From the NCBI GenBank assembly GCA_030264375.1, contig JASCQW010000190.1, positions 34,620,745-34,684,744 on the forward strand: DNA of 64,000 bases, in the 5' to 3' direction. The DNA is from Carcharhinus longimanus. Its lineage: Eukaryota. The notes beneath the pieces were generated by a model that saw nothing but the letters and a program-made list of their open reading frames with translations, was not told where the DNA came from and ran no database searches. Shown here piece by piece: positions 14,778-51,642 of this stretch; position 1 is the stretch's first letter, and each line of letters begins with the position of its first letter. A program made the translations under genes and the position numbers.

Positions 14778-14918
14778 TTATTGAAAACAACACGGGCCTT
14801 GGAACATTTGAATATCCGGAATGAACAGTCAAGGAGACTAGAGAGAGAAAAAATTGAAAGAAATCTGGAAAAATTAAAGGCCATTTCAACTCAGAAGATC
14901 TTGACTAATGTACGAAAG
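14778..14918 (+). CDS. C16orf78/DUF4638-like internal exon (LLKTTRALEHLNIRNEQ...LTNVRK)
   Basis: Pyrimidine tract plus tttag| acceptor; open 141 nt; donor AAG|gtgggc; phase 0/0 links to the next exon. Confidence 0.7.
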
Positions 14919-15136
14919 GTGGGCATAATCATTTTTGTTTGTATTAAGTACATATACCAAAACAGATGGAGTTTGTAATGTCCATGGAGCAATCATTGGA
15001 TAGAACCGTAGAACCAAAATGTGCTTTTAATATCTTTAATATTGATAAATAACAGAGAAAATATCCTTAGCCAATTGCACTACATGTTAATCTCCCTTCG
15101 TAATAAATGGGAGAGAGAATATGATTACACTCATTG

Positions 15137-15246
15137 GCTGGAATTTTCCAGCCCGGTCACAGATTCGGCAGGCTAGCCAAAAGTCCATTGATTTTCAGCA
15201 GGACTGGATAACCCCAGCAGCAGGTGGGTCTGGAAAATCCCATCCC
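15137..15246. mobile_element. Short MITE
   Basis: ggctggaattttccag ... ctggaaaatccatccc terminal inverted repeat. Confidence 0.55.
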
Positions 15247-18008
15247 TGTCTTTGTATTGCCATTTCTCTCTACCTCTCTTCTGTCTCTCTTTTTTTCTAC
15301 TTGTCCCCTTTTAACTTTTCTATGTGTGCTCTTCTGATTGTCTCATTGACCTGTAATTTATTCAATGCTGCCCCCATCACTGCAGGAATTCAATGCCTGT
15401 TTCCTGGATCGACTCATTGGTGTACAACAGGAATAGGCAGCAGGAGCTCCAGGGTTCATCCATACCATCTTTAAAACACCTTGCACCCTGGTAGAGAAGC
15501 AGATAAAATAGGACAAACAACTCTCCCTTTCATTTTTCTCCTTCAAATCATTTCTTTGCACTTCCCATTTTGATAACATTTGGGCAGAATATTGATCACA
15601 CAAGTGCCATTGATACCCCGGGGGGCAGCACTGTAGGGCTCCATCCAGGAAAATATTAAACTTGTACTGAACAACACAGAATGTATAGTGTAGCAAAGGC
15701 CATCTGTCCCAATTATTTATGTCAGTGTTTATGCTCCATCCAAGCTTTTTCCAAGTTAACACTATGGAATTTTCCACCAGCTGGATTTTCCACTCCCGCT
15801 GAAGTCAATGGACCTTGGAATGGCTCACCACGTTTTCCAGCCCCACCCCCTCTGTGATAGGGCCACAAAATTCAGCCCTATGATTATAGCCTATTCTTTT
15901 CTCCCCTGTGTGTATTTAGCTGTCCCTTAAACGTATCTGTGCTTTTTACCTCGACTAATCCTTGTGAGCAGAAGTTCCTAATCACAATGATAACTTCAGT
16001 GATATTGATAGCCAGGCTGTATTGAAGGAGATTGAAATCAGGAGGCACAGACTCCTGGATAGATGGACCATCAAGCCTGCCATGGCTTTCACTTTTACTT
16101 TTTGAACAGAAGAAGATGATACGGGTACTGTCTGGTTATGGTTCCTTAAATCTGGTTATGGTTCCTTTATTGTGGAGTCCAATAGGCATAGACAAAGGTC
16201 ATAGGTAGAAGAGGGCACTCACAATGTTAAAATGGNNNNNNNNNNNNNNNNNNNNNNNNNNNNNNNNNNNNNNNNNNNNNNNNNNNNNNNNNNNNNNNNN
16301 NNNNNNNNNNNNNNNNNNNNNNNNNNNNNNNNNNNTTCCTTTATTGTGGAGTCCAATAGGCATAGACAAAGGTCATAGGTAGAAGAGGGCACTCACAATG
16401 TTAAAATGGCAGTGCAGGCTTGTTGGGCCGAAGGGCCTGTTTCCTGTGCTTTGTTGTTCTTTGTTCTTTGTTTTTGTTCTTTGTCTGCTATCCCCAGCAT
16501 GCTCAGGAGTGCTCTTCTGATCCCCATTAGGGGATTTTTACAATAACTTCATTGTAGTGTTAATGTAAGCCTACTTCTGACAAATAAACTTTAACTGTGC
16601 TTCCTGAAGTTAAAACAACCGGAGCAATGCTGTTGAGTAAACACACAATTTTCTTCCTCCCTTTCTCTCTCTGGGAGCCACACATCCTTCAGTCACTTAA
16701 AAAAATACTTACACACCTAACTGTCTAGCATTGTCAATATAGTTAACATTGTGAGGCAATTCACCCTTCCTCTTCCTAGTGGGTGGGATGGTGTGATGTG
16801 GCAGGGAAAGCAGTCATTAATGACGACAGAGTTGATTTGTGGCAGGGACTGTTAAAGAAAAGGTGGATGTTAGCGCCTCCCTTTCCATTCCTTGCCCCAA
16901 TCACTCAGGCTCCCCCTGCAACTCTTCAATCTCATTACATCCCAAGACTATTCCTACAACATCTTGAAGTCACTACTGCACTTTCCCCTTTGAACTACCA
17001 ACTCAACCTGTGTATTCACTTTCTCCCCCTACTTCATTACCCTTTACCTCACTTATGATCTTCATTTCACTGCCCCTGCCCCCCACTCACTCCCCAAGGG
17101 TGATACCAAGATGACAGAAGCCCCTTTATTCTCCCCTGATTTCCATTCTCCCCTCCGATTCCCCCCATCCCTAATGCTTCCTTCAAAGAGGTGTTGGTTG
17201 CTTTCAAAAGTTAATCTTTTCTTAAAGCAATTCAGAACGACCCAAGTGCCTTTGTATTAGAAATAGAATCTCCATCTCACAGGTATATACAATTAGCAAT
17301 GTTCTGTTATGCCAATAAAACAAAGCTGAGGCAATTATCAAGCATCAATAATCAACCGGTATTTGTTTTTCTGGAAATTGAGGTAAAATGAATGGGGATA
17401 TAATCTGGCCCCACGATTCTCGAGAGTGTGAAACTGGGCATGATTCATGCAGCGCCATCTCAACATACACCAAAACACAACGACCCAGGGAGCCTTCTCA
17501 ATTGGCTCTCTGGCCTCTGACATGATGCAGCTCCCCACTCAAAGCCTGACTAGTTTTGTGCTTATAAGCTTAAAGAGCAGGCAGGAGAAGTTTAATTGTG
17601 GGCTTCGTCCATGGCTTGCAATGATCCTTTTAGAGACGGCCGGCTCGGTTGCTGTAGAGCCTGTGAAAATAGTCAGAGCTCTTACAGCTAAGTTTGAACA
17701 GACTTTGCAAATTAATCGAGAAATGGGCCCAGGAGCCTCATTTTAATATTGAAGTGAGGCCGCTGCCTATTTCAAAATGTCACCATGGCAACCAAGTCAT
17801 GCTAAATCTTGTAGCCACTCCAATGCAAACTCAAATTGGGCACAAGCCTTCCCACTGCGAGTTTAGTTATTGTTGTACCTGTTTTGGGTCAAATAGGTAT
17901 TTGTAACAGTATTAACTGACCCCACAACCTCCCTCAGACCTTTGGTCATAAAGAGGATAACATTATTATAAAATCATGTAAAAACGCAGTAACATTTTCT
18001 TTTCAAAG

Positions 18009-18153
18009 TTGCCAGACAAAGTTTCTAAGATAATCCCATCAGACGACCAGCGGCAAGTATCAGTAAAGCCATCTTCTGACACTTTAAGAAGTCAGTTTGG
18101 AGATCATCTACCAAAGTTTGCGAGCTACCTTCAGAACTCTCCAAAAAAGACTG
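18009..18153 (+). CDS. C16orf78/DUF4638-like internal exon (LPDKVSKIIPSDDQRQ...QNSPKKT-G)
   Basis: Acceptor ttttcttttcaaag|; open 145 nt; donor ACTG|gtagga phase 1, matching the phase of exon 23369. Not present in the ORF track. Confidence 0.75.
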
Positions 18154-19869
18154 GTAGGAATAACAGAAAGAAATAATCTTTTCATTTGCATTGCGACATC
18201 ATATAAATATTGTGCACATATTTAAATTAGTTGATAATTCTATCTGTGCAGTTTATAAAGCAATTCAACCACTTCTTAATTATACCTGAAAAGCATCCTG
18301 ATGGCACATTAAGTAAATGCACCAGGGCTACACTCAATCATGAGGCTCCTGGTTTGTCTGCCCTACTGGGCGAGTTGACCTCAACTGGCGCAATGGTTGT
18401 GGTAATACATTTGATCTAATTGGATTAAGAAGTTGAAGTGTCAACAAAAATACACATTCCTGATCACAGCCCAGTGACTAAAACTGTGCATCAGTGGTTG
18501 TCTCGTGAAGACAGGATGGTACTTTACCCCCAATAATCTGCCAGCGCTCACTCTCTAAGCTTGCCAAGGATGAATGGCCATTTGGGTGAAGGATGATAAA
18601 GCTGCTGACAGAATTATATACCAGAGGGATCACAGCCTTCAAGAACACAGATAAGGTGTGGGACCAATTTAAAAAGGGAAAAGGAAAAGGGGAAAGAAAA
18701 AAACTCAAAGAAAACAATGGAAAATATTTAATAAATCTTGCTGCTCAGAAGTTTCCTGTTAGTTTGAATATTGTGTTACAGCTAATATGATCTTTGAGTT
18801 GCAAGATAACACAAAATGCTTAAGGATGGGAAGGGGATTTGACCCATCTTCATCCATCCAAAACAGCCCAATTATTATAAGTTTGTTTATTAGCCACAGG
18901 TAAGGCTTACATTATTAACACTGCAGTGAAGTTACTGTAAAATTCCCCTAGTTGCCACACTCCGGCACCTACACTCCCCTTCATTCTTGATTCATGTCTG
19001 TTTTTGAAACCTGAAATCCATTTCACATGTTGTTCAACCTCTGCGCAAAAAATCTTTAATATCAGTTCCAAAGATACCTTTTGTGAATTGGAACCAGATT
19101 CCTCTTGTTTCACTCTCCCTATTTAAAGTATTCCGTTAATCTTTTCCAGATCATTTCCTATCTTGCATATTGCCTCTCAGATGCCTCCTTTCCAGATTGA
19201 AAAGACCAAGTCTCTCTGTTTTCTCTTCATTCCTCAGACATTGATGTTATTATCAACTCAATGGCAGTTCTCTGCACTGCCTTCAATGTCTGCCTGTTTC
19301 CTTTCCTTCACAGCAGTCAGAAACAGACACTGTACACAAGATATGGCGTGACCAAAGAACACTATCATTCTCGGGCACTTTCTGTTTCTATCTTTCCCTC
19401 AGGTTTAATCATTACTGCCTGTCTTTATAGCACAGAAGGCTGAGGGGCAACATACAAATCTCACTTTGTCAATGGTGTGAGGCCAGAGGTGATACTGAAC
19501 AGGAAGTTCAAATCCACTTCTCTGTGAACTCTGATTGTCAAGTTCAGCAGTGAGGGGACTTAGGGAATCGTTTGAAAAGTTAATTTCATACCTCACGGGA
19601 TTCATCCGTATCGTGTTAATGTTAATGTTGTTGCCAGAGTGACTAACTGACAATCCTTGGAGGAGACCAGCATGCCAGTTTAATATCCAGAGCTAGATCT
19701 AGTTGCACAGTCTGTGAGAGAAAGGTTAACCTTTTGGAACACCAAGTCCTAAGAATATAAAAGCATCATTCAATTCAAGCCTTAGCAGTACACAGCTCAT
19801 GCTGTGAAGAAACCCCAGGCAGGGTAGAATGGTGACAGCAGACACCACTCACCCTGTTAAATATCATAA

Positions 19870-22635
19870 CCTGCACTGTTTTTGACATCAGGATACAGAC
19901 TTTGTTGTCATGCATTCTTTCTCATGCACTTCAGCGCTGTGCCAGGTCGGGACTTATGTTTTTGGCAAGGGGGCGATGCAGAATATGCAGGTCAGTTGGC
20001 ACAAGACAATGAAGGCTCAACAGTGTTCATTCAGCTGGAGTACAGAGGAGGCTATGTGGGGATGTGACTGTAGTGCTGAGGAGTGGTGTGAGGAAGAGCA
20101 GAAATTCACACGGGTAATGGGAAGCACTGGGGTGGAAGTCACATGGAGTGACGAGAGTCAGGGCTTTGTTAGGACTCCTTAATGCTCATCGTGGTGTTCT
20201 CACTCTTTCAAAGCATGCTTCTTTTGGCCACGTCTTGGAGTCCATCATAGCTGGAATGATAGTCCAGGGCACTGCAGGCCCTTTCAAGTATTTGATTCCA
20301 GGTTTTCATCTTGAGGTGGGCAGGCAATCAGTAACCTCGACAGCCCCTTGGCCTCTTCCGCTCAGGTGAAAAGAGATGCAAAATTTAACTGCTATAGTCC
20401 TGGTGGTGGGGGTGGGGGTGTGTTTGCTCCTTCCATGAGCAGGGTCACTGGAAGGATGGCCACTGGATGATCCTCATCCCTTTGGGTGCCCAGTGGCCTG
20501 GTGGTCCTCCTTGGGATAGAGGGGCAGCAAGAGTGAGGTCCAGAAGCCTCACCATCCTCTGGTGCAGACGCCATGGATTCCCACTAGTGCCTGCATTTGA
20601 AGCCCAACGCTGTGAGGTTCCCGCCCTCAGACATAGAGGTCATGAGGTGAATCATGTGTGGACATCTCCTGCCATGGAGTGTATGTCCTGCACCACCATC
20701 ACAGTGCTGACCTCATTGTGCAGAGTGACGACACCAGCTCCTTGGATAGGTCATGGGATTCCTCCAGTCAGCTTTGCAGCCCAAGGAGAGATGCTGTCTT
20801 CTTTTCCTGATGTTGCGTCTCTACTTTTGCAGTTCCAAGAACTCTAGAATGACTTTATCCAGGGGCACATCATCAGTCAAGGGCCCAGTAGAGTCCTGAC
20901 CTCTGCTATCCTTCTGAATGCCCTGGGACATCCCTGCCTCCACTCACTGTGGATCTTCAGCTGTGAATGCTCACCAGTGAGTGACCCAGAAACCTGTGTA
21001 CTTAGTGAAGCCACCGAGGTGCGAGTATCTGTGCTGGAGCGGGATGTGGTTGACAGTCCAGTGGTATCCAACCCCTGCCTCTTCCAGGACAGGGTTGGAG
21101 AAGTCTCCCTTGGAGCTGCTGGAATCTGGTGGGTCAAGGGGGTCCGAGGATGGTGCGGCCTGCTCGGTGCATTGCCTGCAAGAGAAGGGAGATGGCATTA
21201 GTGCATCACAGAAAATAAAGAAGGGAACACTGATTATTCACGCGAGACTTGAGGAATGCTCATGTCTTTCGGATTCCCAATATTTTCTGTTCCCCCACTT
21301 CACCATCAGTACAGGTACACTCTTCCTCCTCCCCATCCAGATCAAGGGCTCTCTCCTCGAATGGCGTGAGTGTTCTCACGCCATTCGAGAGTGCTTTGGC
21401 ATTACTCTGGCTTGGTGTGTTAGCTCATGCCTGTTGTGGTTTATTTTATCCTGCAATGACACAGATGGGGAGAATGTAAGCAGGAGTTGTTAACATTTAA
21501 GATGGTGATTAGGTATGGCAGGGGTGGGCCTCGAGTGGGAGCTGGAGTATGAGGAGCATGGCAGAGAGTAGGGGGGATCATGGTGATTGGAGGAGGAGGG
21601 AGGAGGGCCTCCTTACAGGTGTTGGCAAAGCCCAGAGTGGCACAGTTGTTGTCAGACTTTTTACAGTGGTCAGCGCCAAGGACCCAGGTTCAATTCCTGG
21701 CTTGGATCACTGTCAGTGTGGAGTCTGCACATTTTCCCCATGTCTGCATGGGTTTCCTCCAGGTGCTCCAATTTCCTCCCACAGTCCGAAAGACATGCTG
21801 GTTAGGTGCATTGGCCATGCTAAATTCTCCCTCAATATATCAGAACAGGCGCCGGAGTGTGGCGACTGGGGGATTTTCACAGTAACTTCATTGCAGTGTT
21901 AATGTAAGCCAACTTGTGACACTGTAAGAAGGCCCTCCTCCCTCCTCCTCCTCCAGTCACCATGATCCCCTCTACTCGCTGCCATGCCCCTCACACTCCA
22001 GCATGTAGGCCAACTTGTGACACTAATAAATAAACTTTAAAGCCTGAAGTGTCTGGCTGAGAGATGAAGGTGGAGATGGGAATGGGTGTGTGAGGGGGGT
22101 CCAGGAAAAGACTGCATGAGGCTCACTTACCCTGGCTGAACACAGAAGATCGTTTATCTTTTTCAGGCACTGCTGCCCTGTCCTCTTTTGCAGTGAGCTG
22201 GCACTCACCAGGGCTGCCACTGCATCCTAAGTGGGGATGGTAACATTGGTGGGAGGCCATCTCCTGGAGTGGCGTTAGAATGTATCCTGCGTCTGTTGCA
22301 TTCCGTCAAGCAGTCTGGTGAGGGCTTTGTCTCAGAATCAAGGTGCAAGCTTCCTGCCTGCCATCCCCTGCAATCGCTGTGGAACAAGTTCTGGAGAGGC
22401 ATTAATGTGGATCTGCCCATTGAATGCTGCGATTGAGTTGAGCCTGGACAGGCGAATCAGAGGGAGACTACCATGGGCACAGTGCGACTCTCATGGCCAT
22501 AAAAGCTTTTGTTTTTGAGGCTCATGATACAATCACAAATTATGGGATTTATGACTGGGATTGGTCAGTGGGACTGACTCCATTTTTCTCGCCAGAACTG
22601 ACACATTGCCAAATCTTGGTGAGGTTGCCCTCAGT
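19870..22635 (-). mobile_element. PIF/Harbinger-like element remnant encoding a pseudogenised Myb/SANT-like DNA-binding protein
   Basis: Exon-like 22364-22131: MAGRKLAP*F*DKALTRLLD...VAALVSASSLQKRTGQQCLKKINDLLCSAR|gtaagt; second exon starts at 21450 (ttgcag|DKINHNRHE...LTPFEERALDL); multiple stops; outer boundaries approximate. Confidence 0.7.
21630..22040 (+). mobile_element. Shark tRNA SINE with a templated insertion in its tail
   Basis: B-box ggttcaattcc, canonical body; tail interrupted at about 21923-22002. Confidence 0.85.
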
Positions 22636-22789
22636 GTCTGTTGTTGCTGCCTGTAAATGTTGATGTTCACTTTAACATTATTCATCGTGCAAAGTATCAC
22701 AGCTACCACTGGTCTGTTTGAAACTGAACCCAAGACACGTAAGTGGAGAAAGAGGATAAAGAAAACGAATAGAAAGAAAAGAATATTGT

Positions 22790-23130
22790 ACATAGAATCC
22801 TAACAGTGCAGAAGGAGGCCATTCGGCCCATCGAGTCTGCACTGATGACAATCCCACCTAAGATCCAACCCCACAACTCCACTTATTTATCCAGCTAATC
22901 CCACTAACCTACCCATCCCAGGGTACTAAGGGGCAATCTAGCTTGGCCAATCTAGCTAACCAGCACATCCTTTAGACTGTGGGGGGAAACTGGAGCACCT
23001 GGAGGAAACCCATACAGACACAGGGAGAACATGCAGACTCCATACAGACAGCGACCCAAGCCGGGAATCAAACCCAAGTCCCTGAAGCTGTGAGACAGCA
23101 GTGCTAACCACTGTGCCACCGTGCCACCCT
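22790..23130 (-). mobile_element. HE1-type SINE
   Basis: Reverse complement of head (gtgctaaccactgtgccaccgtgcc) and of CR1-like tail (agaatcctaacagtgcagaaggaggccattcggcccatc). Confidence 0.92.
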
Positions 23131-23368
23131 TTCTACTCTTTATATTACAATCAAACTTTATGGGTAACCAAAGGTTATGTTCCTGAGAAAGTATTTGTTG
23201 AATTTTGGTCCCAGTATGATTCCATGGTGTCTCTACATTTTTTTAAATGTGCAAAATCTTATCACAAATGAAGACAGCAACATTTGCTTTCAGTAGAATA
23301 TTACAACTTATTGGATTTAGTGTTCAATTTAAAGGAATAGTTAATGATGCAATCTTTTTTCCTTGCAG

Positions 23369-23771
23369 GGCAGACAACTTTAAAATCGGCATTACCATTT
23401 AGTGGATTAAGTTTGCCGATTAACGTGTCAGCCTCTAGGAACATAGACCCTCCAAACAAGAATACGAGTAACAGTATACCAGGAAGTGTCAACCTGAATA
23501 AACTGAATAAATATAACACTTCTTATTCACGCTCTAGCCAGATACCGAGCAGTATGGGCAGTCGTGGGACAATCACGAGGATGCCCTCTTTGTCAAAGGT
23601 TCTCTCTTCAGCTGGAAGCAAGCCTCTTACTGAGTCACGCGAAACCATATTTGGATTCCTCTCCTTTGATAAAAAGCTAAACGAGATGCTTGCAAAGTTC
23701 TCTAACGAGGATACGAAAAATCCATCAATAGGTTCGGAAATGTTCAAACCCGCGGAGGTTCTAAGGTGCAG
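23369..23771 (+). CDS. C16orf78/DUF4638-like penultimate exon
   Basis: Acceptor ttttttccttgcag|GG; open 403 nt; ESRETIF..LSFDKKLNEMLAK..FKPAEVLRCR resembles recalled human SQRATFI..MAYERKLKSLMEK..LKPEEVLSCR; donor TGCAG|gtaata phase 2. Confidence 0.85.
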
Positions 23772-24554
23772 GTAATAAAATTGATGATAGCGACCAATGT
23801 AAAAGAGAAAACAAAGCAAGCCAATCAGATAATCTTGGTACACCCTAATTCACCCCGTGGCATACACAGCTTCATCCTCAGGCCATAATTGTCAGAACTA
23901 TTGCAATTTTCATACAAACATCTTTTTGCAAAATCTCCTTCCCAATTCCCCCAGTCACTGCAATGACAACTCCCCGATGTCGGGGTTTCTGTGTACGAAA
24001 TACAAGCACCTTTTGCTTTGGTTTTTATGTTTGCAATGGGAACCACCACCTTTTATAAGAGAGTACATTGTTTTTTTAATTCTCCAGATGCCATTGCTCT
24101 GATGTTTGCCACAAGTAATCAGATTTATTTGAAATGTTTCACAACTTGCCATGTTGAGATTTGAATTCATAACGTCTTCATATATTAATCCCGTACATCA
24201 ACTACTCCACAAGAACTATTCAATGTTAAGATAATATATAGCATTTTATTTAACATATACATATAAAATACATAGTTACTTTTTCAACATGTATTTAGCC
24301 TATGTATAAAGAACAAAGAAACGTAGTGTAATATTACTCAGTTCCACTAAAAATTCATGTACAAATTTTATTCAGATGAGTCTTCTATACGATTTCAAAA
24401 ATAGTGAGACAATTTATGAATGATAAAAGACACAAGTGTAAATGTGTCTTTGTACTCCTTTTGAGCCAGTATATAAGGGTTAGCACAGCTTAACTGTGAG
24501 TACTCTAGCCCATAACAGATCAGTCATGTTGTATATAATTGTAATTCACCAGCT

Positions 24555-24850
24555 TTTTCCCAGCGTGGAAGAGCTAATTACTAGGAGGCATAGGTTTAAG
24601 GTGTGAAGGGCAAGGAGATAAATGAGGCAAGTATTTAACACAGGGTGGTGGGTGCTTGGAACTCGCTGCCAGAGCAGGTAGTGAAAGCAGATGTGGCAGT
24701 GACTTTTAAGCAGTGTCTTGACAAAGACATGAATAGGGTGAGAATAGAGGTCCCTGGAAAGGTAGGGGGTTTTAGTTTAGTCAGACAGCATGGCCAGTGC
24801 AAGAGGGCCAAAGGGCCTGTTCCTATAATTTTCTTTGTTCTTTGTTCATT
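24555..24850 (+). mobile_element. CR1 LINE 3' fragment
   Basis: VVGAWNSLPEQVVKAD..TFKQCLDKDM; tail aagggcctgttcct...(tttgttc)n. Confidence 0.85.
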
Positions 24851-25514
24851 CAACTATCCAACTCTTTGCTTTTCATGTTTCTCTTCATATTTGTGGTTCG
24901 TTGTATCAGGGTTATTTGACTGTGGGGAAAAGAGATGAGTAACAATTTGTCATGCATTAAAGCTACCTCAGCACAATGGATGCCCAAAATTAAATGTAAT
25001 ATTAAATCTATACGCTCATTCATATGAATCTCCTAATTGCCAGGGTATCAGTTTCAGGCAGCAGAAGGTGACAAAACAGCATACAGACAGGGATAATTTG
25101 AATCAGTCTTCAGAAATTAACTCATTTTTCAGAAGATAGATATCCTGTGGAACAGTTGCCATTACCAAACACCAGGTGGTGAATCTTGTGGGGCCAACAA
25201 ATCGCCCACTCCCATACATCCACCTCTCACTCACACCCCATCCTGGCCCCAAAGCTTAAGTTTGCTCAGCACCTTGCCAGCTTCAAGTTTGGCTGCCTTG
25301 CAGTGATAATATGCTGGCAGTGGCCTTAATAGAATGAAAATGGGACTTGCAACCCTCAGAGGTATTGAGTCCCGTCCTAGGGAGCTGCTGGTCATTCTGA
25401 TTGAGTGGCTTCTCTCCAGCCCCAGCAGCTCCAAAAGATAGTAGTGACCCCTGGCTAGGTCAGCAAGCAGACCCCAGCAAGGAAGGAGATCGCGCCTGGA
25501 CTTGAATATTTTTA

Positions 25515-25820
25515 AGGTTTATCTATTAGTGTCACAAGTAGGCTTACATTAACACTGCAATGATGTTACTGTGAAAATCCCCAAGTTGCCAAACTCCAAT
25601 GCCTGTTCGGGTACACTAAGGGAGGATTTAGCAGGGTCGATGTACCTAACCATCATGTCTTTCGGACTGTGGAAAGAAATTGGAGCATCCGGAGGAAATT
25701 CATGCAGACACGGGGAGAACATGCAGACTCCACACAGATAGTGACCCAAGCTGGGAATTGAACCCGGGTCCCTGGTGCTGTGAGGCAGCAGCGCTAACCA
25801 CTGTGCCACCATGCCACCCA
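25515..25820 (-). mobile_element. Shark tRNA SINE
   Basis: Full head and body on - (pseudo-ORF MVAQWLALLPHS..). Confidence 0.92.
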
Positions 25821-26434
25821 GTCCAAGCATCTTAATTGGGCATTGATTGAGGACCCCAGCAAGGGGGCATGTATTAGGGGGTGAGGGCTGGAGTTAGGTT
25901 TCAGAAGACGAAGGGGTTACAAAAATGGGAACTCCTTCTTGTGGGAGGGGGGGGAGGGGCAGGGGGGAGGGAGAGGGGGTGGTGGGCAGGGTGCCCACAA
26001 TGGGCAGACAGGGAATCAATTCTCCAAACGAGGCAAGGCCTCCTTTCTTCTGGGCAGTGGGTTGCACTGTCACAGCTGTTCAGTTGCCTGTCTTCCTCCA
26101 CAGGCTAGAAAACTGCAGCTAAATGAATCCCTTAAGTACCAGTTAATCATCCACTAAAGGCCTCGTTAGGCCCAAGGGCAGGAGGACTGCCTGATGCCAT
26201 ACCTGCAACCCATAATATAGGGCGCAGGTCAGGGAGGGGCAGGAAGGCATTGGGCTGGCTATCCGCTTTATTTTACCTTTGCCCCCTCCTCAACCCCCTT
26301 GCCCACCCCACCTTCAAATATACAAGCTGAGATCTGGAAAATTCAGCCCCAGGAATTTGATGTGTAGAACATGTTATCTGCTGTCAGCTATCATTGCACA
26401 CTGTTAACAATATGTTCCCCGCTCATCCCCACAG

Positions 26435-40490: not shown

Positions 40491-40764
40491 TAAGTTTCAC
40501 ACAATCAAACATTTCAAAAGCCTTTAAAGCACCATCCACTTTGTTGTGTGCTTGAGTCAAGTGTAAGGCAGAATAGGTAAGGATGGCAGACGTCCTTCAC
40601 TAAATGATATTAATGACAATGAACAATAGTTTCATCATCTAGATTTATTAATTAAACTTGAATTCCACGAGTTGCCGTGGTGATGCTTGAAGCCATGTCA
40701 CCAGACCATTAGCCTGGGTCTCTGGATTACTAGTCCATTACCACTATGCTGTTGGCTCCTGAGG

Positions 40765-41175
40765 ACAAAAAATAAAAATCAAAGAACAGTACAACACAGG
40801 AACAGGCTCTTCTGCCCTCCAAGCCTGTGCCAATCATTATGTCTGCCTAAACTAACACTGTATGCACTTATGGAGTCCATATCCTTCCATTCCTATCTTA
40901 TTCATGTATTCGTTCAGAAGCCCCTTAAATGCCGCTATCGTACCTGTTCCCACCACCTGCCCAGACAGCGCACTGTGTAAAAAAACTTGCCTCATACATC
41001 TCCATTAAACTTTTCCCCACACACCTGAAACCTATGTCCCCTAGTACTTGACTTTTCTACCCTGGGAAAGAGCATCTGACTATCCACTCTGTCCATGCCA
41101 CTCATAACCTGTAAACCTCTATCAGGTCGCCCCTCAAACTCCGTCATTCCAGTGAGAACAAATTGAGCTTATCCT
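40765..41175 (-). mobile_element. CR1 LINE 3' fragment
   Basis: Reverse complement of CR1 3' end (acaggaacaggctcttctgccc...gtaaacctctatcaggtcgccc). Confidence 0.8.
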
Positions 41176-43731
41176 GTGGTATCACTTCAGTTCACGTTTA
41201 CCTTTCCTTCTGTTATGTTTTTTCCCATTTCAGAGCAATCGTTCCATGTGCTGATTTTTATTATTTTTTACTGGTTTACATCTAATGAACTTCAAGTACA
41301 TCCTCACCTTATTTCCAACGTATTTGCTTCTTCTTCCCCACCCACAGTAACGGTGATACAGGCAGAGGTCACACTTTCCAACATAACAGGGCTAAAGGTC
41401 ATTTTCAATTCTGCAGTTTAATCATCATCTACCATTACATCCTTTGAAAAATAAGCGTAAGGATGCACACATGTACAGATAATTTCAAGATAGCGATTCA
41501 TTCAAATAATTTACCTTACTAATTGCAAGTAGTTAATTGAAAAAAATGGAATACAATTTTTGTCTGCTTTAGTAATGCAACACTGGAGGGAAAGACGAGC
41601 TTTCTCACAAATCTCTGGGATGAACAAGAACGCAGTAGTGACACCAATTTTGTCTTTTAAAAAGCATTTAGATAGTTGCATGGGGTGCGATGGCTATAGA
41701 GGGATATGGGCCAAATGTGGGCAATTGGGATTAACAGGGGTTTTAAAAAAGAAATGGCGGCATGGACAAGTTGGGCCGAAGGGCCTGTTTCCATGCTATA
41801 AATCTCCAATACTCCTCTTTGACTCAATGTAAGAAATGAGCATACTGGGGCAGGCTCATCAGAATTGAGATCACAGTAGCAAGTCCTTGAGAGATATCAA
41901 GCATTCCTATGTATGTGTGTATTCTGGTAATCAGTAAAAAAAAGAGCAGTGTATGTGTGAGCACTTAACCAAGATATTCACTAAGCTCTGACAAAGGGTC
42001 ATTCAGATTCAAAACGTTGGCTCTATTCCCTCTCCACAGATGCTGATTTTCACAGATTTTCCAGCATTTTGTGTTTTGGTTTCAGATTCCAGCATCTGCA
42101 ATATTCTCCTTTAAGCCAAGATAAACAAGCATCGCAAAGATACAATGCAAGAAGCACAAGCAGCTGCCCCAATAGCCTGGTGGGTAGATGTCATAGTACT
42201 GAGTGAGAAAAACATACTGAATCTTGATCCGTTGTGTATTAGTTATTTCAGTGACATTAGGGTGCTATTATTGTCCCTAGTAGCTTTGGCTCCTTGCTAG
42301 GATAGGAGGAGAAAACCATCTCTGGTTCCCATTTCTGAGTGTTATTCTGAGACTCCAGCTGGCGAATGTGCATATGTAGATGTCAGGTACCAATTGCACT
42401 GGATTCAGCTCTATAATCTTCTACAGTTAAATAGCCTGCTGTCAATCATAGTCCAGGCTCACACATGAAGATAAGATGCTTTGTCAAGGTGGCAGGTGAA
42501 ATCACAACCCAGGAAACTGCAAGAGTTTCAGTAAAAGGGAAGAGGAGAAGGGACAAAACATATGCAAGGCTGTGCCAAAGCTTCATCAGAAACCTAGTGA
42601 TTGAAAGACGTAAGAATTGCACAGGTGGGCACTGTGAAGTAAAGCACTATATCTGAAGGAAAGATTGCAGGAAATGAGAGTACCCCTGTGAGAAAGAACA
42701 GCATTGTAGCAAAGCCCATGGGAGATAAAAGTGCTGTAGCTCAGCAGTGCAGAATGTGAATAGCACGGCACTATAGGAAATGAGAGCATTGCAATTAGTT
42801 GCTACAGGAAGCAAGCACAGTAAATCACCTCGGTAATTAGAGCATTGCACAGCCTTGTATCTACATTAGCCATGTGCCATCTTACCTTCTCATCTCTTCT
42901 CATAAGTTTGTGGAGCTTGCAGGCTTTTCTGCCCCACAAATTACAGCTCATTCAAAAACTTGGCTACTTACAGGAATGTCTACACCCCCATTCTCCACAA
43001 GGTCCCTGCATCAAAGCTAATTGATTTAATGACCATATACTGAAATACCTCCAAGGCCTTGCCCCACATTATCTCCACGATCACCAACCATACAGACTCT
43101 TCCCTCTGATATCAGCTTCCTTCTTACTCCCTCCATTCCACCACTCTTTCATTTAGCTTTACATTGAACTCGCAATTGCTATCAATTGACTGGGGGTTAA
43201 CAAAACAGTAAACCCAACAAGAGAGTGACCTGTTGGCAGTGTTTCTTATTGCAGCAACCATTTGATGGAATTTGATGAATTGGGATTATTGGACAAATTA
43301 ACCCTAAAAATCTACGAAACTATTGAGATCAATGTTGTGCTCTGGAGGTCAGCCATCTCCATCGCTGTAAATTACAGGGGCAGCTCTTTTACATATCCTT
43401 CTGTTCACTGTCTCAGCACAAGTATAGCACAGCAGTGCTGCACCATGGCTGAGGGGAGCCGTGGGGCTGGGGGAGGGTGTGGGATGNNNNNNNNNNNNNN
43501 NNNNNNNNNNNNNNNNNNNNNNNNNNNNNNNNNNNNNNNNNNAGGGGACTGCTGGCTTCAAAACTTCAGGATTGACTGAGATTGCAGCAATAGGATGCAA
43601 GACCAGTAGGCAAGTCAGTAAACACAGATAGCCCATTAGATTTAATGAAGGGTTTGTCTATAATTTTGTACCTCTTTTAGAGCATTTGTTGAAATAAATA
43701 CATTTCAGACAGACCAATGTTCAAACACTTT

Positions 43732-44030
43732 ATAGAATCCCTACAGTACAGAATGAGACCATTCAGCCCATTAAACATGCACTTGGACTCTATCCAAATA
43801 ACTCCACGTATTTACATCGCCAATCCCCCGACATTAAGGGGTAATTTAGCATGACCAATCAACCTTACCTGCGCATCTTTGGACTACGGGAGGAAACCGA
43901 ATCATCCGGGGGAAACCCACGCAGACACAGGGAGAACATGCAGACTCTGCACAGACAATGGCCCAAGCCAGGAATCGAACCCAGGGCCTTGGAGCTATGA
44001 GGCAGTAGTGCTAACCATTATGCCGCTTTC
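43732..44030 (-). mobile_element. HE1-type SINE
   Basis: Head, body and CR1-like tail on -. Confidence 0.9.
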
Positions 44031-44095
44031 TGGAGGAGATAGTTTATGTTCATTGAGGCGCACTCCATTCCTTCACTTCCACCTCCAGGAGTAGG

Positions 44096-45133
44096 CGTTA
44101 TGATCTCAATAGGTGAGTCACTGTAATTTGAACTCCCAGTTTTTAAATGAAAGAATTATGCTATATGGTTTATACAAAAACATTTATAATACAACAATTA
44201 AACAAAGCAAGTACTGCTAACCTAAAACTATATGTCATAAACACCTATTCTTTTAAATCCAAAAGTCTCAACAGAACACTTTATGCTGTTTTCATTTCCA
44301 CACAAGAGAACCCCGATACTTTATAGGATTTTGAGGGTTCTTTCAGTTCTCCTAGGACCAAGCCAAGGTGTGCCATAGCTCTCCAAAATTCACTTTAATT
44401 CTCCTCTGTGTTCCTGCTTTTCTCCACGGGGCATAATTCCTTGGGATTCTTCCACTAACATCCGGGTATCCAGCCTTCCAACTCTCCTCCAACTTCCTTT
44501 CAGGACTTCACGAATGTGGTCACTGCAGCCCAAGGGTGGGTTTCATTGCTTTCTTTCTTAGTGACTCCACAACAGAAAACACCCTTGGGTTCAGATAGCC
44601 TCTGTCATGAGTCTTCTGCTCTTGGGAGAATTTCTAGAAGCTGATTCCTGCTCCAACTGATTGTTTCTGTGCAGCTAAATACAAAATCAAAAAATATCTC
44701 CCTGCAATCTATTTCTGTGAAAATGTGGCACACCTGGAATGTGTCAGATAGGGACTTAAACTAATTATCTCCAATTCCAAAACACATCCTTTGACCTGAA
44801 AAGTATATAGATACTTTAAGACCCTCCCTTGTTTTCCAACCTCCCTTTGATTGGGGGAAATTACATGTTTAATTTATATTACTAAAGTGGACAACTTCAA
44901 TTTTACAGGAGTCATTGGTTGCATTACAAAGTTAAGAGAGAACCACATGTTTTCCCACATCCAACTCTGTCCTTAATGAATAGACTAGGCTACCCTTTGA
45001 TTTGTAATTTTTAGGTGTGCTTACCAGCTTCTCACAAGTTGTTTTAATTTACCTTGCATTTAAAAATTTCATTCCCCAAACCAAAAGTTATATCTCTAAC
45101 GCACAGGAACAATGAAATTACATATTCATAACA
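44096..45133. mobile_element. Solo LTR of about 1 kb
   Basis: Ends (c)GTTATGA ... TCATAACA are inverted; flanks tagg/cagg look like a 4-bp TSD with one mismatch. Confidence 0.6.
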
Positions 45134-46673
45134 CAGGAAATATAGAGCTGATTGGGAGGCTCACTTAAAACCAAAGAAAATGGTGAAATCAGTAAGGCAC
45201 AAGGTTACTCAAACTCAAGATCAAGAGGTGAAGCCAGCAGATGGCAATCTGTGGACTCCAATGTTGCCCCTCTGTNNNNNNNNNNNNNNNNNNNNNNNNN
45301 NNNNNNNNNNNNNNNNNNNNNNNNNNNNNNNNNNNNNNNNNNNNNNNNNNNNNNNNNNNNNNNNNNNNNNNNNNNNNNNNNNNNNNNNNNNNNNNNNNNN
45401 NNNNNNNNNNNNNNNNNNNNNNNNNNNNNNNNNNNNNNNNNNNNNNNNNNNNNNNNNNNNNNNNNNNNNNNNNNNNNNNNNNNNNNNNNNNNNNNNNNNN
45501 NNNNNNNNNNNNNNNNNNNNNNNNNNNNNNNNNNNNNNNNNNNNNNNNNNNNNNNNNNNNNNNNNNNNNNNNNNNNNNNNNNNNNNNNNNNNNNNNNNNN
45601 NNNNNNNNNNNNNNNNNNNNNNNNNNNNNNNNNNNNNNNNNNNNNNNNNNNNNNNNNNNNNNNNNNNNNNNNNNNNNNNNNNNNNNNNNNNNNNNNNNNN
45701 NNNNNNNNNNNNNNNNNNNNNNNNNNNNNNNNNNNNNNNNNNNNNNNNNNNNNNNNNNNNNNNNNNNNNNNNNNNNNNNNNNNNNNNNNNNNNNNNNNNN
45801 NNNNNNNNNNNNNNNNNNNNNNNNNNNNNNNNNNNNNNNNNNNNNNNNNNNNNNNNNNNNNNNNNNNNNNNNNNNNNNNNNNNNNNNNNNNNNNNNNNNN
45901 NNNNNNNNNNNNNNNNNNNNNNNNNNNNNNNNNNNNNNNNNNNNNNNNNNNNNNNNNNNNNNNNNNNNNNNNNNNNNNNNNNNNNNNNNNNNNNNNNNNN
46001 NNNNNNNNNNNNNNNNNNNNNNNNNNNNNNNNNNNNNNNNNNNNNNNNNNNNNNNNNNNNAATAACATCCAAGAGGCTCTAGTTCACAAATGAAAACTAC
46101 AGTGCAACTAATTGTGGAGCAGAACCAAGCCTTGCCCCAGGACTCACATTTAAAAAGCCTTACATGCTTAGTTTACATCATAAGCCCACTCAAAATGACA
46201 GGTAATTCAGGACCATTACTTTTTTTAAAAAGTTTATTTATTAATCACAAGTAAGGTTTACATTAACACTGCAACAAAGTTACTGTGAAAGTTCCCTTGG
46301 CGACTTCTTGCGAGCTGTCCTCAGCATACCCTCTAGTCCTGTCATTTACTCTTGTTCTATGCTTTTAAAACTTAACTCTAACTCTTGTCTTTGACTGTAA
46401 CACTATATTCTGTACCCTCTCCCTTCCTTCTCCCTCTATGAATGGTATGCTTTGTCAGTATAGTGCAAGAAACAATAAGTTTCACTGTACCCCAGTACAT
46501 GTGACAATAATAAATCAGATCAAAATCAAAATAAATGTCCCAAATTGTTAAAATCATATGAATCGTTCATACACACTAAAATACATCACTGAATGTAAAA
46601 TCTTTCTAAAACTTTTAATAGAGAGAAACAAAACAAGCTCAACATTTCAAAATCAGAATAAGGCAAAGAAATG

Positions 46674-46679
46674 TTTATT
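46674..46679 (-). terminator. Candidate distal poly(A) signal of PEDS1
   Basis: AATAAA on -, followed by a U/GU-rich downstream element (reverse complement of 46620-46655); more proximal AATAAA at 49455-49460 and 49054-49059. Confidence 0.5.
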
Positions 46680-48274
46680 AATAAACTCGACTTAAGATAG
46701 TTGATACATATTTAAAGTGTAATCCCCTCTGGCTCCAAGCAGTTCATTTTCAAGCATTCTTGGTTCTAAAATGTAAACAGGAAAGCACAGCTGTGGCTGA
46801 CATCGCAATGAAACACAAAGTACGATCAGGACTCCCACTCAATACAGACAATCTCGTGCTCCTGGTCAGCCTGGGATAAAGTACATAACTCATCAGGTTG
46901 CATCATTTTAATTTGGAAAATGAATGAACCCAATGTACTAAACCAAAAACATGTTTCCTGATCCCTTAGAAGGCGCAAAAACAAATTGTTTCTTAAAAAA
47001 AGTGAACGAACATATGGATTGAGAAGCACCATAATGAGAAGCAGTGGAAATTATATCCATATAAATGGGCTGACTTGATAGCTCAACAGGAGCTAAGCAG
47101 AAATATAATTCACATCTTACCCCATTCATACAATACCTGATATCCATAGAATACTACATTTCATTCATAATTACATTTAATGTGCACAGTACGTGAAGAC
47201 CAAAGTGACAGAAAGAGTAAAGAAGGTTATATTCTCCCAAATAAATTCAGTGTTGAGAGAAATTGACAGATTAAGGGATTAAGCTAGATAGTGGTTATTA
47301 AACGTAAAGCTAAGAAGCAGGCGACAGGTGCAGATCTACACACGTGAGAGCGAGGACCCACGCAACAATTAAACTAACATACAAAACACAGCACAGGGAT
47401 GAGTGTTTGATCCAGAGAGGAGAGAGGCCTAACTGCAGCTGCCAGAGTGGGATCATGACACTTCAGGATCTGCATCGGTCGAGTGATGTTATATTTCTAT
47501 TTCAGTACCATCGCCAAGGTCATCTCTAACTTTAGTAGCAGCACTGCACTATAAATGAGACAGAACTAGTGCTTCTGGCAGCACCCATCACACAATGCTT
47601 CTCTGCACTGTCAGAAGCAAATATAAAAGGTTTCTGCCACTGGATATGCATGTGATATTGGCATATTTACGACTGCAATTTTATTAGCACACTCAGATCT
47701 TCACAAAGTCTGTGGCCTGAAAACAAAACTGCAATTAGGGTTTTGCAAGAATGGCGTATATGCAACTGCTTATGTTGGCACTAGTGCCCCGAGCTCTACC
47801 CCACATTATAAATGGGACAGACTGTCCGACTCAGAAGGGCTACTCTGCAGGGTAAGTTTAAGTGGTAGCTCTACAAAATAGACATCTGTGGTTTCTGTAA
47901 CAAGTGAGAGCAGGGTCTAGAATTTGCCGTCGGAATAATGGTAAGGTTGTCAGCACTCATTGTTGTTGCTGTATAAAACTGACAGCAAACTCTGGCACCC
48001 CACATGCGCAGTTAAATGCGGAATTTTGTGACTTGTTGTCAGGGTTATGCAGCTCCCACAAAGGCTGTGCTATTGCAGTCTTCATTGATACACTCATTAG
48101 AAATCACTGATTTGTCACGAACTTCAACGGGTTATAGATCATTCCTGCTGCTAAAAAGTAATGAAAACATTAATAACTCCAGATGGAGCAAGACTTGAGT
48201 TTTTAACGACATGTTAAGTCACAATTGTTGCAGAACGAGTGCACTGGTCTGAGAAACTAATTTTACAAATACAT

Positions 48275-48490
48275 AAAATGTTGGAAAATCCCAGCAGGTC
48301 TGACAGCATCTGTGGCGACAGAATAGAGCCAACATTTCGAGACAGGATGACCCTTCGTCAGAGCACCTGATGAAGCTCTGACGAAAGATCATCCTGATTC
48401 AAAACGTTCTCTTGCCACAGATTCTGTCAGATCTGCTGAGATTTTCCAGCATTTTCTGTTTTTGTTTCAGATTCCAGCATCTGCAGTACA
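48275..48490. mobile_element. Penelope-associated palindromic repeat with hammerhead-like cores
   Basis: Arms aaaatgttggaaaatcccagcaggtctgacagcatctgtggc and gccacagattctgtcagatctgctgagattttccagcatttt; CTGACGA..GAAA-type motifs on both strands; half-copies at 37370-37495 and 41983-42105. Confidence 0.75.
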
Positions 48491-49665
48491 TAGCTTTTAA
48501 ACTAAGTTTCTTTGAATTTCTGTTTATATATTTCTTTCCCACTTAGCCTCATCTACCTGTCACAATCTACACTTAGCTTTCTGAACAATGGTTTAAACGT
48601 GCTTTATCCCTTTACTTCCTGCCTTGCTGTGTCAGAATTCTTCAATCAGATCAGTGAATCAGCCTGCCAGCGGTCTGCCCTGTTGCCAGAGGCACTGATC
48701 CTCTGTAGATGGCACAAATTGAAACTGAGGTCCGAGAAGAGGAAATCTACACTGTGATTGAAGAATCTCTTTGGGGGATTTCTTAAAAGTCAGAGACTGT
48801 TCCTGTTCCTTTGCCATCTACCATAAAACATGGACCATGCAGATCCTTGCCACAGAATCATTGGATATATATTCCCTTGTCTTCAAAATCAAGTAAGTAT
48901 TTCTCATTCTGTAGTTGTGGGTATAACATACATTTCCACAGAAGCTAAGAAACAAAACCACTGCCAGATGGACCTATTAACTCATCGCTGTAGCTCCTCA
49001 CCAGAGCTGTCTCACAACCAAAGTAAACAGTAAAATATTCTATGATCCTCTTGTTTATTCATGATGTAACTGTGAGGCTACATTAGGCGTGTGAAGGCTT
49101 CTCTGACTTGGTTCTATATTATGATGTGTTACCTCACATGAAGCAATCATCAATGTCAATGCTGAAAAACAATGAAAATACTTTGCATCGTTACAAAACT
49201 CAATCAACTTTGTATGAAGTGCGTATATGAGCTGGTTCAATTTACTAGGGTTACAATCATGTTAACAGTGCTTAAGGCTGATCAGTCTGCAATTATTCTT
49301 GCCACAATCTTTCAAAGGTCACCATTAAAATGGGACCCAGATCTTTTCATTTGCTTAAAATGTCGCTGGTGCTATTTTTGTTTATATTATTAGTACAAAA
49401 TAACATATACATGGTCGGCATTTTATGCATTAAAATAAAGTGGTAAGCAAACAATTTATTTCTACACCTTTATAAGCAGCTCATCTGAATGGCAGCAATG
49501 ACTTTGCAAATAAAGTGTCTTTCGAACGTACATCACATCATGTAGTGATGCAAGTTTCTAGATGCTGGTCAAGATTTAGGAAAGGTATTCAGAAGCTTCT
49601 TCTCTAGGTAAGCATGGTCCAGCCTCATCAGTTGCCCAATGTGCCATTAGTCGGCTAACAGTCTG

Positions 49666-49787
49666 CTATTCTGTCTTGTGGGCCCACTTCATATCGTCAG
49701 TCCTGGGCTCGTGTCCAGTTAGATTTGTTACCAGATACTCAAAGTTCCGCCAAAATCCAATCTTCTCCAGGAGATAATTCAGCCACC
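49666..49787 (-). CDS. PEDS1: Plasmanylethanolamine desaturase 1 (TMEM189) terminal coding exon
   Basis: Acceptor ttgttgtactcag|GG; GWLNYLLEKIGFWRNFEYLVTNLTGHEPRTDDMKWAHKTE* matches the recalled TMEM189 C-terminus WLNYPLEKIGFWRRLEDLIQGLTGEKPRADDMKWAQKIK. Confidence 0.95.
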
Positions 49788-51429
49788 CTGAGTACAACAA
49801 AGAAGATTTATATACATTAGATTGTGCAGTCTCATAAACATCACAAATGTTTAGACCTTCTATGCAACGACACTTCAATGCCCTGGACAAGTGAGGTGCA
49901 TTCTCCTCATACAAGCCTATTCTGATTCTTCTATGCCATTCGACAATAATATATCTCACCTAGAATCATAAACAAATAAGCAATATGAGCTCTTGAATTT
50001 AGACTCTGGTAATCACCCATCCTTTGAATATTACAATCGTATTTTAAATCGTATTTCAATGTGTTGCAGCTGAACAAAAGATTTGTGTAAAATATGTTTT
50101 TTTTAAGAATGGTCATTCAAAAATGCGGCAACTAAAAACAGTATTTCAAGATTACCTCAAATCCCTGATTGATCCCTGTGCAGCCAATTTTTCTTGTTTT
50201 CTGCTGGTTCTGTTTTATTCAGGTCTATTTGTTACTACTGACAGTAGGTTATTAATAATTCGATGTGGAGAGTGTTGCTTACTGAGAATTGAGAACATAT
50301 CATTCCTGAGAGGGAAGAGGGCTGTTAGGCCACATTCTCCCTTGAAACAGATGCTCTCCCCTGTGGGCTGTTTGTAAATACACTCATCGTTGGTGTCCTA
50401 CAAAACAACTCATCATTTTTTCCAATGGCTGAGAGTGAACCTGGTTTCCTCAACAAAGGAGGATGCGTGGATACTTCTGAACGTAAAACAAGGGACTGGC
50501 TTTCTCATGGCAACTTGAAATAAATACTACAACTAAGAGGTAAGGGGATTCTGATGTTTGACAACTCCATCCTGAATGAGATGATTGGCTACAACCTGTT
50601 TTGTACTCTTGATGGGTTGCACAGTGCTGTTGTGCAGAACACATACACAGAACCTCAGCTTTGCCATTGATCAGGTTAGACCAAAAATAGCCTTATCTTT
50701 CAAATCTAATGCTGTAAATGTTGTCTAGATTGAGGCCTGTGGGTAACCCAGGTTGCTATACTGCATCACTCACACTGAACCAGTTCTATTCCCAAGCAGA
50801 ACAGAATTCTGCAATGCTCCATCAAGCCTGGATAATGAAAGATTATGTCACATAGGAAGGTGACAAGCCATTTGATCCTCTTATGGAGCATTTTACCTTA
50901 GGTGGGAACACTGTTATTCACTTTCAGGACAAAAGCAGCCCCTTTCTATTTGACTGTAGGCCTTGGGGCTGGTAACTACTTTTGGTTGTGAACTTCCACA
51001 AACAAATAATAAAGATATCGCCCACACCTACATTTGCCCGCTAATATTTCACAGCCGGATATAAATACAAAAAAATATATAAAGCAGGCAGCTATTTATA
51101 TCTCTCCGGAGTGGGATGGGGTTGCTTTCTCTTTTATAGCCACCAACACAAATAAAGAGCCTTCAATGAATTTTCTAATTTGTCTTACTGGTCTTGTATC
51201 ATCAACATCAGTTTTCAGCAGAGTAAGCATTTATATTAGCAAGAGATTTTTGGGCGACATTACATTTATAGATTAAGTGCTCTGCTATCAAAGTGATCAT
51301 AAGCAAATTACTGAACAATAAACAGGCTTGCTATTTTAATTAAATCGCTTCCAGTTCAAGAAAAAGGTAGTTGGTTGACAATTTTCTGCCACTCCTCTTG
51401 GGTTCTGCAGCAGCATTTGCAACTCTGAC

Positions 51430-51642
51430 CTGTGGTAATGCAGAAGTAGGTTTCATGAGGGGCAACATGGTGGATTCGGTGATGCTTTCTGGGCAAGATG
51501 ATGTGGCAGTCCTGCAAGATGGTGACCCAGCGAGGCAGACCAAAGTACGTGTGGGACCATTTGTGAATCTGATTGGTCATCGTCACAAATACGCCTAAGC
51601 AGAACACGTAACAATCCCAGGCGTAAGCTTCGTAGACAGCTT
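51430..51642 (-). CDS. PEDS1: Plasmanylethanolamine desaturase 1 (TMEM189) penultimate exon
   Basis: Acceptor ttttccttttgcag|AA, donor ACAG|gtcaga, 213 nt phase 1/1; [47 protein letters not shown] retains the His motifs. Confidence 0.97.

Follow-up and report, generated by a model that had tools for sequence, protein, structure and literature searches.

The window examined here, a stretch of 64,000 nucleotides of the Carcharhinus longimanus genome corresponding to positions 34620745-34684744 of contig JASCQW010000190.1 (C190), contains the 3' end of a second gene for the plasmalogen-forming desaturase PEDS1. This intact, spliced gene, designated PEDS1-B, is very probably a product of an early vertebrate whole-genome duplication (WGD), most likely of the first round (1R), and likely encodes a working desaturase. 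The evidence comes from a search of the 2.68 Gb genome for further PEDS1 loci, from the phylogeny of the two copies, from the genes that accompany each of them and from the residues that the encoded protein retains.

Two PEDS1 loci

When all 14 candidates from a genome-wide search with the PF10520 profile were scored, eight exons were matched, and these fall at exactly two loci: PEDS1-B on C190 and a further gene, PEDS1-A, on contig C119. No intronless copy of PEDS1 was detected in the genome with this profile. PEDS1-B spans about 128 kb (C190 34670410-34798519), with two of its six exons inside the window, and has an open frame of 286 aa over six coding exons; PEDS1-A (C119:34682326-34706202) encodes 282 aa, likewise over six coding exons, and every intron in both genes is GT-AG. 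Exons 2-6 measure 120, 92, 145, 213 and 122 nt in each copy, and this common exon plan is stretched over very unlike distances, PEDS1-A occupying just 24 kb. The two proteins are identical at 194 of 282 aligned pairs. Over 230 codons the proportion of nonsynonymous differences (pN) is 0.16 and that of synonymous differences (pS) is 0.79, which is saturated; the combination of saturated pS and low pN implies that the pair is old and constrained.

The copies differ in what lies downstream of them. A UBE2V gene is found 37 kb downstream of PEDS1-A on the same strand, and UBE2V exons were detected at two places in the whole genome, on C119 and on contig C61, with none on C190. From their positions, the C119 gene is inferred to be UBE2V1 and the C61 gene UBE2V2. 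Near PEDS1-B, a search of 664 kb of C190 with the genome's own three UBE2V exons reached a best E value of 0.68, in a stretch of which 60,598 of the 664,000 bases (about 9%) are N, as are 1,270 of the 49,665 bases of the window downstream of the gene. With the 140 C-terminal residues of each of 14 Kua-UEV fusion proteins as queries, a single match with E ≤ 0.05 arose at the C190 locus, in the PEDS1 portion of one query, and as a control the same 14 tails gave 41 matches at the C119 locus. Hence the arrangement that permits Kua-UEV read-through, with UBE2V1 immediately downstream and in the same orientation, is present at PEDS1-A and absent at PEDS1-B, where the read-through cannot form because no UBE2V gene follows. 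This bears out the original prediction, which had noted that UBE2V1 exons were missing downstream of the gene and had proposed beforehand that two shark PEDS1 loci, one of them beside UBE2V1, would point to an ohnolog.

That prediction had also entertained a simple rearrangement, in which a single shark PEDS1 matches the human gene one to one but has moved away from UBE2V1, or alternatively a DUF4638 gene that is a 20q-side paralogue of C16orf78 retained beside the true PEDS1. The appearance of the window, taken by itself, would fit either. Both are scarcely credible once the genome is considered, given the second PEDS1 beside UBE2V on C119, the rejection of a grouping of the window's protein with those of mammals (p 0.001, see below), and the presence of only one DUF4638 family match, at one five-exon locus that, like human C16orf78, sits between CBLN1 and ZNF423, barring a very divergent DUF4638 copy missed by the family and protein searches alike.

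A Kua-UEV isoform derived from copy A is annotated in the ray Narcine (P0126), and Kua-UEV records also exist for gar, teleosts, frog, snake and birds; all of these are database models. Further along C119, at 34855900-34858640, lies a long low-complexity tandem array that is open in several reading frames.

Phylogeny and age of the duplication

Proteins for phylogenetic analysis were gathered by searches with exon 5 of PEDS1-B and of PEDS1-A, from which the best 120 of 757 and the best 120 of 752 matches, respectively, gave 202 distinct proteins. After trimming and the removal of 48 rows shorter than 150 aa, a FastTree phylogeny of 156 rows was computed. It separates a clade B of 51 rows (support 98) from a clade A of 99 rows (support 96), with three unnamed rows on a very long branch inside the latter. 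Clade B comprises sharks, rays, sturgeon, paddlefish, gar, bowfin, teleosts, coelacanth, lungfish and turtles, while clade A contains all mammal, bird, squamate and amphibian rows, together with every Kua-UEV fusion record in the tree. Some sea-turtle records in clade B are short (149-160 aa; P0247, P0251, P0253 and P0254) and those of pond turtles are full length, which may reflect incomplete models or decay of the gene. The named proteins nearest to those of the window belong to sharks. The PEDS1-B protein is 96.5% identical to its Mustelus ortholog, 74% identical to zebrafish XP_005159144.1, which groups with the teleost B proteins, and 67-69% identical to rodent and bat proteins.

With IQ-TREE, clade B was recovered from 36 chosen rows with supports of 84/89 under LG+G4 and 91/73 under a mixture model, and with 93/89 when both zebrafish proteins were added. 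Under LG+G4, clade A was resolved only jointly with lamprey (83/88). Approximately unbiased (AU) tests rejected the union of A and B copies into a single clade for teleosts (p 3e-7, or 4e-7 with both zebrafish proteins), turtles (p 1e-4) and coelacanth (p 0.002), and also for chondrichthyans (p 0.026); the grouping of shark B with mammals was rejected as well (p 0.001). These rejections imply that the split predates the jawed-vertebrate radiation, and that the zebrafish pair does not stem from the teleost-specific third round of duplication (3R).

It could be argued that separate duplications within lineages, in cartilaginous fish, in teleosts through 3R and in others, together mimic one B clade, and the poor resolution of clade A and the chondrichthyan p value lend this some colour. 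Nevertheless such a history is very unlikely, as all four lineage-specific groupings were rejected, and the N-terminal 35 residues, a region in which likeness is partly ancestral, are nearly the same in the B proteins of shark, ray, coelacanth, turtle, gar and teleost.

Chromosomal context and probable origin by genome duplication

The genes around PEDS1-B on C190 are arranged in the order CBLN1 (-, 34.457-34.461 Mb), C16orf78-like (+), PEDS1-B (-) and ZNF423 (-, exons at 34.895-35.039 Mb). The cerebellin gene, which lies 0.2 Mb from PEDS1-B, scores 98 bits against the solved CBLN1 and 77 against CBLN4, and the zinc-finger gene has 70% identity to mudskipper ZNF423, compared with 61% for the C61 copy over the same stretch. 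A published human gene list (PMC4184880) gives the order CBLN1, C16orf78, ZNF423; the C190 block thus follows the order of human 16q12, with PEDS1-B as the one addition.

On C119, PEDS1-A is accompanied by a different set. The cerebellin on this contig, at 28.25 Mb, is CBLN4 (96.5 bits, vs 80.7 to CBLN1); a C/EBP gene of which only the N-terminal half was found lies at 34.62 Mb, upstream of PEDS1-A, and is inferred from its position to be CEBPB; and a SPATA2-family gene is present at 35.19 Mb. Along with the UBE2V gene, these make up the human 20q13 set. SPATA2-family genes occur on both C190 and C119. A search with the bZIP_2 profile found no C/EBP basic leucine zipper on either contig, and neither carries a match to NFAT (PF00554) or RNF114-type (PF18574) genes. 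The 1.2-kb contig C25731 does encode a C/EBP basic leucine zipper (positions 759-917), which may be the C-terminal half missing from the gene upstream of PEDS1-A. A third member of the paralogon is C61, which carries ZNF423/521-type, SPATA2-family, C/EBP, UBE2V and cerebellin genes (positions 3.88, 6.58, 54.38, 54.68 and 101.63 Mb); no PF10520 match, and hence no PEDS1, was detected on this contig.

Human chromosomes 16 and 20 (chicken 11, 20 and 2) have been described as belonging to one early vertebrate paralogon (Kadota 2020, PMC7471279). In the table of Lamb 2021 (PMC8040251), which is confined to trios and quartets, CBLN1 is assigned to cell 10B, and CBLN4, CEBPB, SNAI1 and RNF114 to cell 10C. 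PEDS1-A and PEDS1-B therefore lie on sister chromosomes of a single paralogon, as marked by CBLN1 vs CBLN4, the SPATA2-family genes and the two cells, and an origin by WGD is accordingly regarded as highly probable. The topology given by Lamb 2021, ((A,B),(C,D)), separates B from C at 1R, such that if both PEDS1 genes remain where they arose, they constitute a 1R pair; once a WGD origin is granted, this assignment is itself quite probable. Both trees and synteny thereby support the idea, put forward in the original prediction, that the gene is a second PEDS1 ohnolog which mammals lack.

Some indications of shared linkage in other species come from the longest-contig figures attached to database records. 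Clade-B and C16orf78-like proteins share one such figure in Narcine (108,750,091) and in Scyliorhinus torazame (266,286,206), and the mudskipper ZNF423 and a clade-B fragment share theirs likewise, which hints at shared chromosomes rather than adjacency. The mudskipper ZNF423 record P0216, which fell in the clade-B PEDS1 cluster, was considered as a possible ZNF423-PEDS1 fusion and discarded; it holds no PEDS1 sequence, and so constitutes no evidence that the two genes are adjacent.

Several observations weigh against the proposed history. The immediate neighbours of the two copies are not paralogous: beside PEDS1-B there is neither a UBE2V gene, within 664 kb of C190, nor a C/EBP gene, no C16orf78 match was found in 300 kb near PEDS1-A, and CBLN4 is 6.4 Mb distant from PEDS1-A. 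Clade A is unresolved in two of the IQ-TREE trees, those with the mixture model and with the added zebrafish proteins, as is the placement of lamprey, and the chondrichthyan AU value is not extreme. Every AU test was run under LG+G4, on a set of 36 or 38 rows chosen by the authors and for groups named after earlier trees had been seen, and the arrangement with the jawed-vertebrate copies together to the exclusion of lamprey was not rejected (p 0.43), meaning that the PEDS1 tree alone cannot separate 1R from the second round (2R). The lack of clade B in mammals, birds, squamates and amphibians applies to the best 120 of 757 and best 120 of 752 matches, the genomes themselves not having been searched. 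At the level of the gene, the shark B protein has leucine at two otherwise conserved columns (rodent positions 133 and 237), and the sequencing-run contigs that span its last intron differ from the window at scattered letters and may derive from a related species.

The non-paralogous neighbours, and trees that place the split no more precisely than ahead of the jawed-vertebrate radiation, would suit a small-scale event, in which a segmental or transposed duplicate in the jawed-vertebrate stem landed on the CBLN1 chromosome by chance. This is considered unlikely. The landing site would have to be the sister chromosome within the same paralogon 10, 0.2 Mb from CBLN1, and by rough reckoning a random landing on such a chromosome has a chance of about 1/10. 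The retention of all five introns in PEDS1-B excludes a retrocopy, and the ancestral N-terminal motif described below is kept in B and not in A. Shared microsynteny, moreover, is stated to be supportive of, and not required for, two-member ohnolog families (PMC13450315, section 7). Under the favoured origin by WGD, the B-side chromosome would have retained PEDS1 without a UBE2V neighbour after the duplication, and B would later have disappeared from mammals, and probably from birds, squamates and amphibians as well; in human, this loss would leave C16orf78 beside ZNF423.

Predicted enzyme function of PEDS1-B

All nine histidines aligned with rodent positions 96, 121, 122, 131, 187, 191, 215, 218 and 219 are kept in the shark B protein, and rodent D100 and F118 correspond to its D115 and F133. 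Mutagenesis of the mammalian enzyme identified H96, H121, H131 and H187 by name and showed H207, H214 and H223 to be dispensable; D100 and F118 were the only ones of 28 mutants with less than 20% activity, and mouse H131, a ninth histidine besides the eight essential ones, sets PEDS1 apart from plant FAD4 (PMC8960569). The remaining essential histidines were taken to be the other invariant ones, beyond those that this source names. Only four columns of the catalytic core are diagnostic between the clades (at least 80% in both), and as these are few and mostly conservative, there is no sign of an altered active site.

The AlphaFold2 model of P0266, the ortholog with 96.5% identity (mean predicted local distance difference test score, pLDDT, of 71), has long helices at 56-82, 86-117, 148-172 and 175-196, with pLDDT below 50 for residues 1-42. 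The four predicted membrane helices thus pertain to this ortholog, rather than to the window's own protein. Both zebrafish paralogues have been reported to encode active PEDS1, which converts plasmanyl- to plasmenyl-phosphatidylethanolamine (PMC11362147, PMC9131029). Because the nine catalytic histidines, D100 and F118 are kept, PEDS1-B most likely represents an active di-iron plasmanylethanolamine desaturase of the endoplasmic reticulum, judging from its sequence. As such, it would be a four-helix enzyme that introduces the vinyl-ether double bond into plasmanyl-phosphatidylethanolamine.

The two unusual leucines, one of which is absent from four other chondrichthyan B rows, could be read as signs that the gene is a genuine old duplicate that no longer works as a plasmalogen desaturase in this shark, being in decay or directed to another substrate. 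There is little to recommend this reading, in view of the open 286-aa frame, the presence of all essential residues, a pN far below pS, spliced contigs, and the close identity to a Mustelus ortholog with four predicted membrane helices.

A conserved motif in the N-terminal tail

An unexpected difference between the clades lies at the N-terminus. The motif SMxE[DE]DxN, encoded in exon 1 of PEDS1-B beyond the window, is found in 32 of the 38 B rows whose N-terminus could be used (50 in the group) and in none of the 62 such human-type A rows (98 in the group). It also occurs in all five outgroup rows, namely two isoforms of one lamprey gene, the pearl oyster, a ladybird and one unnamed protein. 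The pattern was defined after the sequences had been seen, and the region was trimmed from the main trees. In coelacanth and frog A, only an MAE remnant survives. The presence of the motif in B, lamprey and invertebrates, and its absence from A, indicate that it is ancestral and that B has retained it, the human-type copy having lost it.

Its conservation within a tail for which disorder is predicted is suggestive of a linear motif. The S-x-x-E arrangement resembles the consensus of acidic-type kinases, and one guess is that the motif is an acidic-kinase site, or else a docking or turnover signal. In the scheme proposed above, the conserved motif of the disordered tail may add a layer of regulation that A has lost. 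A more speculative extension, which is put forward tentatively and may well be wrong, is that vertebrates have had two PEDS1 genes since 1R that differ in regulation, the motif of B, of bilaterian age, controlling the enzyme's turnover, location or partners, and the human-type copy having lost the motif and kept the UBE2V1 read-through. If so, human PEDS1 would be derived, the ancestral form would be modelled by invertebrate PEDS1 and zebrafish peds1a, and the two zebrafish genes, peds1a and peds1b, would not be twins that can stand in for each other. The conserved motif offers a testable lead on the regulation of plasmalogen synthesis.

Relation to known PEDS1 genes

Human and mouse PEDS1 (also TMEM189 or Kua), which lie upstream of UBE2V1, share their domain and essential residues with shark B. 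They are nonetheless its paralogues and not its orthologs, the mammalian counterpart in the shark being copy A; shark B lacks a downstream UBE2V gene and keeps the N-terminal motif, which mammalian PEDS1 is without. The closest studied relative is instead zebrafish peds1a (si:ch211-212o1.2, ENSDARG00000011498), which belongs to the same clade B and has the same N-terminal motif, and which, as shown here, did not arise alongside peds1b in the teleost 3R. The original prediction missed both the orthology of the window's gene to peds1a and its persistence in many lineages outside the mammals. In Supplementary Table 1 of PMC11362147, peds1a is given as si:ch211-212o1.2 and peds1b as tmem189; the link from the name peds1a to XP_005159144.1 runs via the si:ch211-212o1.2 label on other clade-B rows.

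This alters the reading of the zebrafish plasmalogen model: peds1b is the ortholog of human PEDS1, and peds1a represents a lineage that split off ahead of the divergence of sharks from bony fish and that is apparently lacking in mammals. The statement, in PMC9131029, that one copy is the rule for most species and zebrafish an exception would not hold for sharks, rays, non-teleost fish, coelacanth or turtles.

The pairs CTCF/CTCFL, CBLN1/CBLN4 and SALL1/SALL4 of the human 16/20 paralogon lie in the same blocks and have the same inferred origin in early WGD (PMC7471279, PMC8040251). Both copies of each of these survive in human, whereas the chromosome-16-side copy of PEDS1 is missing, so that ohnolog lists centred on human cannot show the pair. 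The literature searched yielded no paper on the motif or on how the vertebrate PEDS1 pair arose, and the ohnolog database of PMC13450315 may list the pair; the words 'paralog' and 'vertebrate' do not occur in the main text of a 2026 PNAS paper about the pathway's origin, or in that of its preprint. UniRef, for its part, labels a coelacanth protein si:ch211-212o1.2, a name also given to clade-B rows, and a pre-teleost origin is therefore implicit in public annotation. The ancient origin of the peds1a lineage and its motif were met in no paper, the zebrafish gene itself having already been studied. Given that retention of ohnologs in sharks with loss in mammals is a familiar pattern, and that database names already imply a pre-teleost origin, the result is only moderately surprising.

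Gene structures in the window

The coordinates of both genes are listed in Table 1. The junction of PEDS1-B exons 5 and 6, across a 1,642-base GT-AG intron, is present in contigs from all four of four sequencing runs, which come from four studies; these runs are only guessed to be RNA, none being recorded as such. The contigs cannot fix the end of the RNA, and the limit of the 3' untranslated region (UTR) is hence approximate. High-copy repeat fragments lie at the end of the UTR (46200-46620) and within it (48276-48490), where they draw thousands-fold depth from other loci.

Table 1. Annotated parts of PEDS1-B and the C16orf78-like gene (positions within the window unless prefixed C190)
Feature	Position	Strand	Evidence
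C16orf78-like exon 1, coding from ATG	1881..1961	+	tblastn with protein P0121, 81%; GT donor
C16orf78-like exon 2	14778..14918	+	85% to P0121; AG/GT
C16orf78-like exon 3	18009..18153	+	82% to P0121; AG/GT
C16orf78-like exon 4	23369..23771	+	79% to P0121; AG/GT
C16orf78-like exon 5, ends at stop codon	26435..26585	+	PF15472 E 8.5e-18; splice model
Candidate poly(A) signal of PEDS1-B, AATAAA	46674..46679	-	sequence scan; use inferred from contig ends
PEDS1-B 3' UTR, about 3 kb, end approximate	46640..49665	-	covered by run contigs in 4/4; pieces end at 46502-46728
PEDS1-B exon 6, coding portion including stop codon	49666..49787	-	PF10520 E 6e-08; AG acceptor; joined to exon 5 by run contigs in 4/4
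PEDS1-B exon 5	51430..51642	-	PF10520 Lipid_desat E 4e-28; AG/GT; holds HxxxH and HxxHH histidine boxes
PEDS1-B exons 1-4, beyond the window	C190 34798351-34798519, 34767720-34767839, 34716839-34716930, 34703298-34703442	-	

As the original prediction had described, PEDS1-B converges on a DUF4638-like gene on the opposite strand. Their stop codons face each other with 23,080 bases between them, making the pair convergent without overlap, and this tail-to-tail layout most likely represents old linkage without functional coupling.

The C16orf78-like gene has five exons with GT-AG introns and a 306-aa open frame, of which only the C-terminal 80 residues are matched by PF15472. Position 14778, which had been given as the start of the noted stretch, is the beginning of exon 2, the gene itself beginning at 1881. 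Genome-wide there is one DUF4638 family match, and a protein search returned one five-exon locus, with the next match at E 0.3. The gene thus has the features expected of C16orf78, in that it carries the DUF4638 domain, is single copy and lies between CBLN1 and ZNF423. Its copy number and flanks indicate that it is the ordinary C16orf78 and that PEDS1 is the extra gene, so that the suggestion of a C16orf78 paralogue retained beside PEDS1 is not borne out. The likeness to C16orf78 (PF15472) consists of the domain match and the CBLN1-ZNF423 position, and the difference amounts to ordinary divergence only.

Ten of the 51 matches to this protein were looked up. Among them, relatives named 'C16orf78 homolog' come from coelacanth, gar, amphibians, a snake and a rodent, and the C-terminal DUF4638 block is also kept in uncharacterised proteins of a sea urchin and amphioxus (P0322 and P0333), which implies that the C16orf78 gene is older than the vertebrates.

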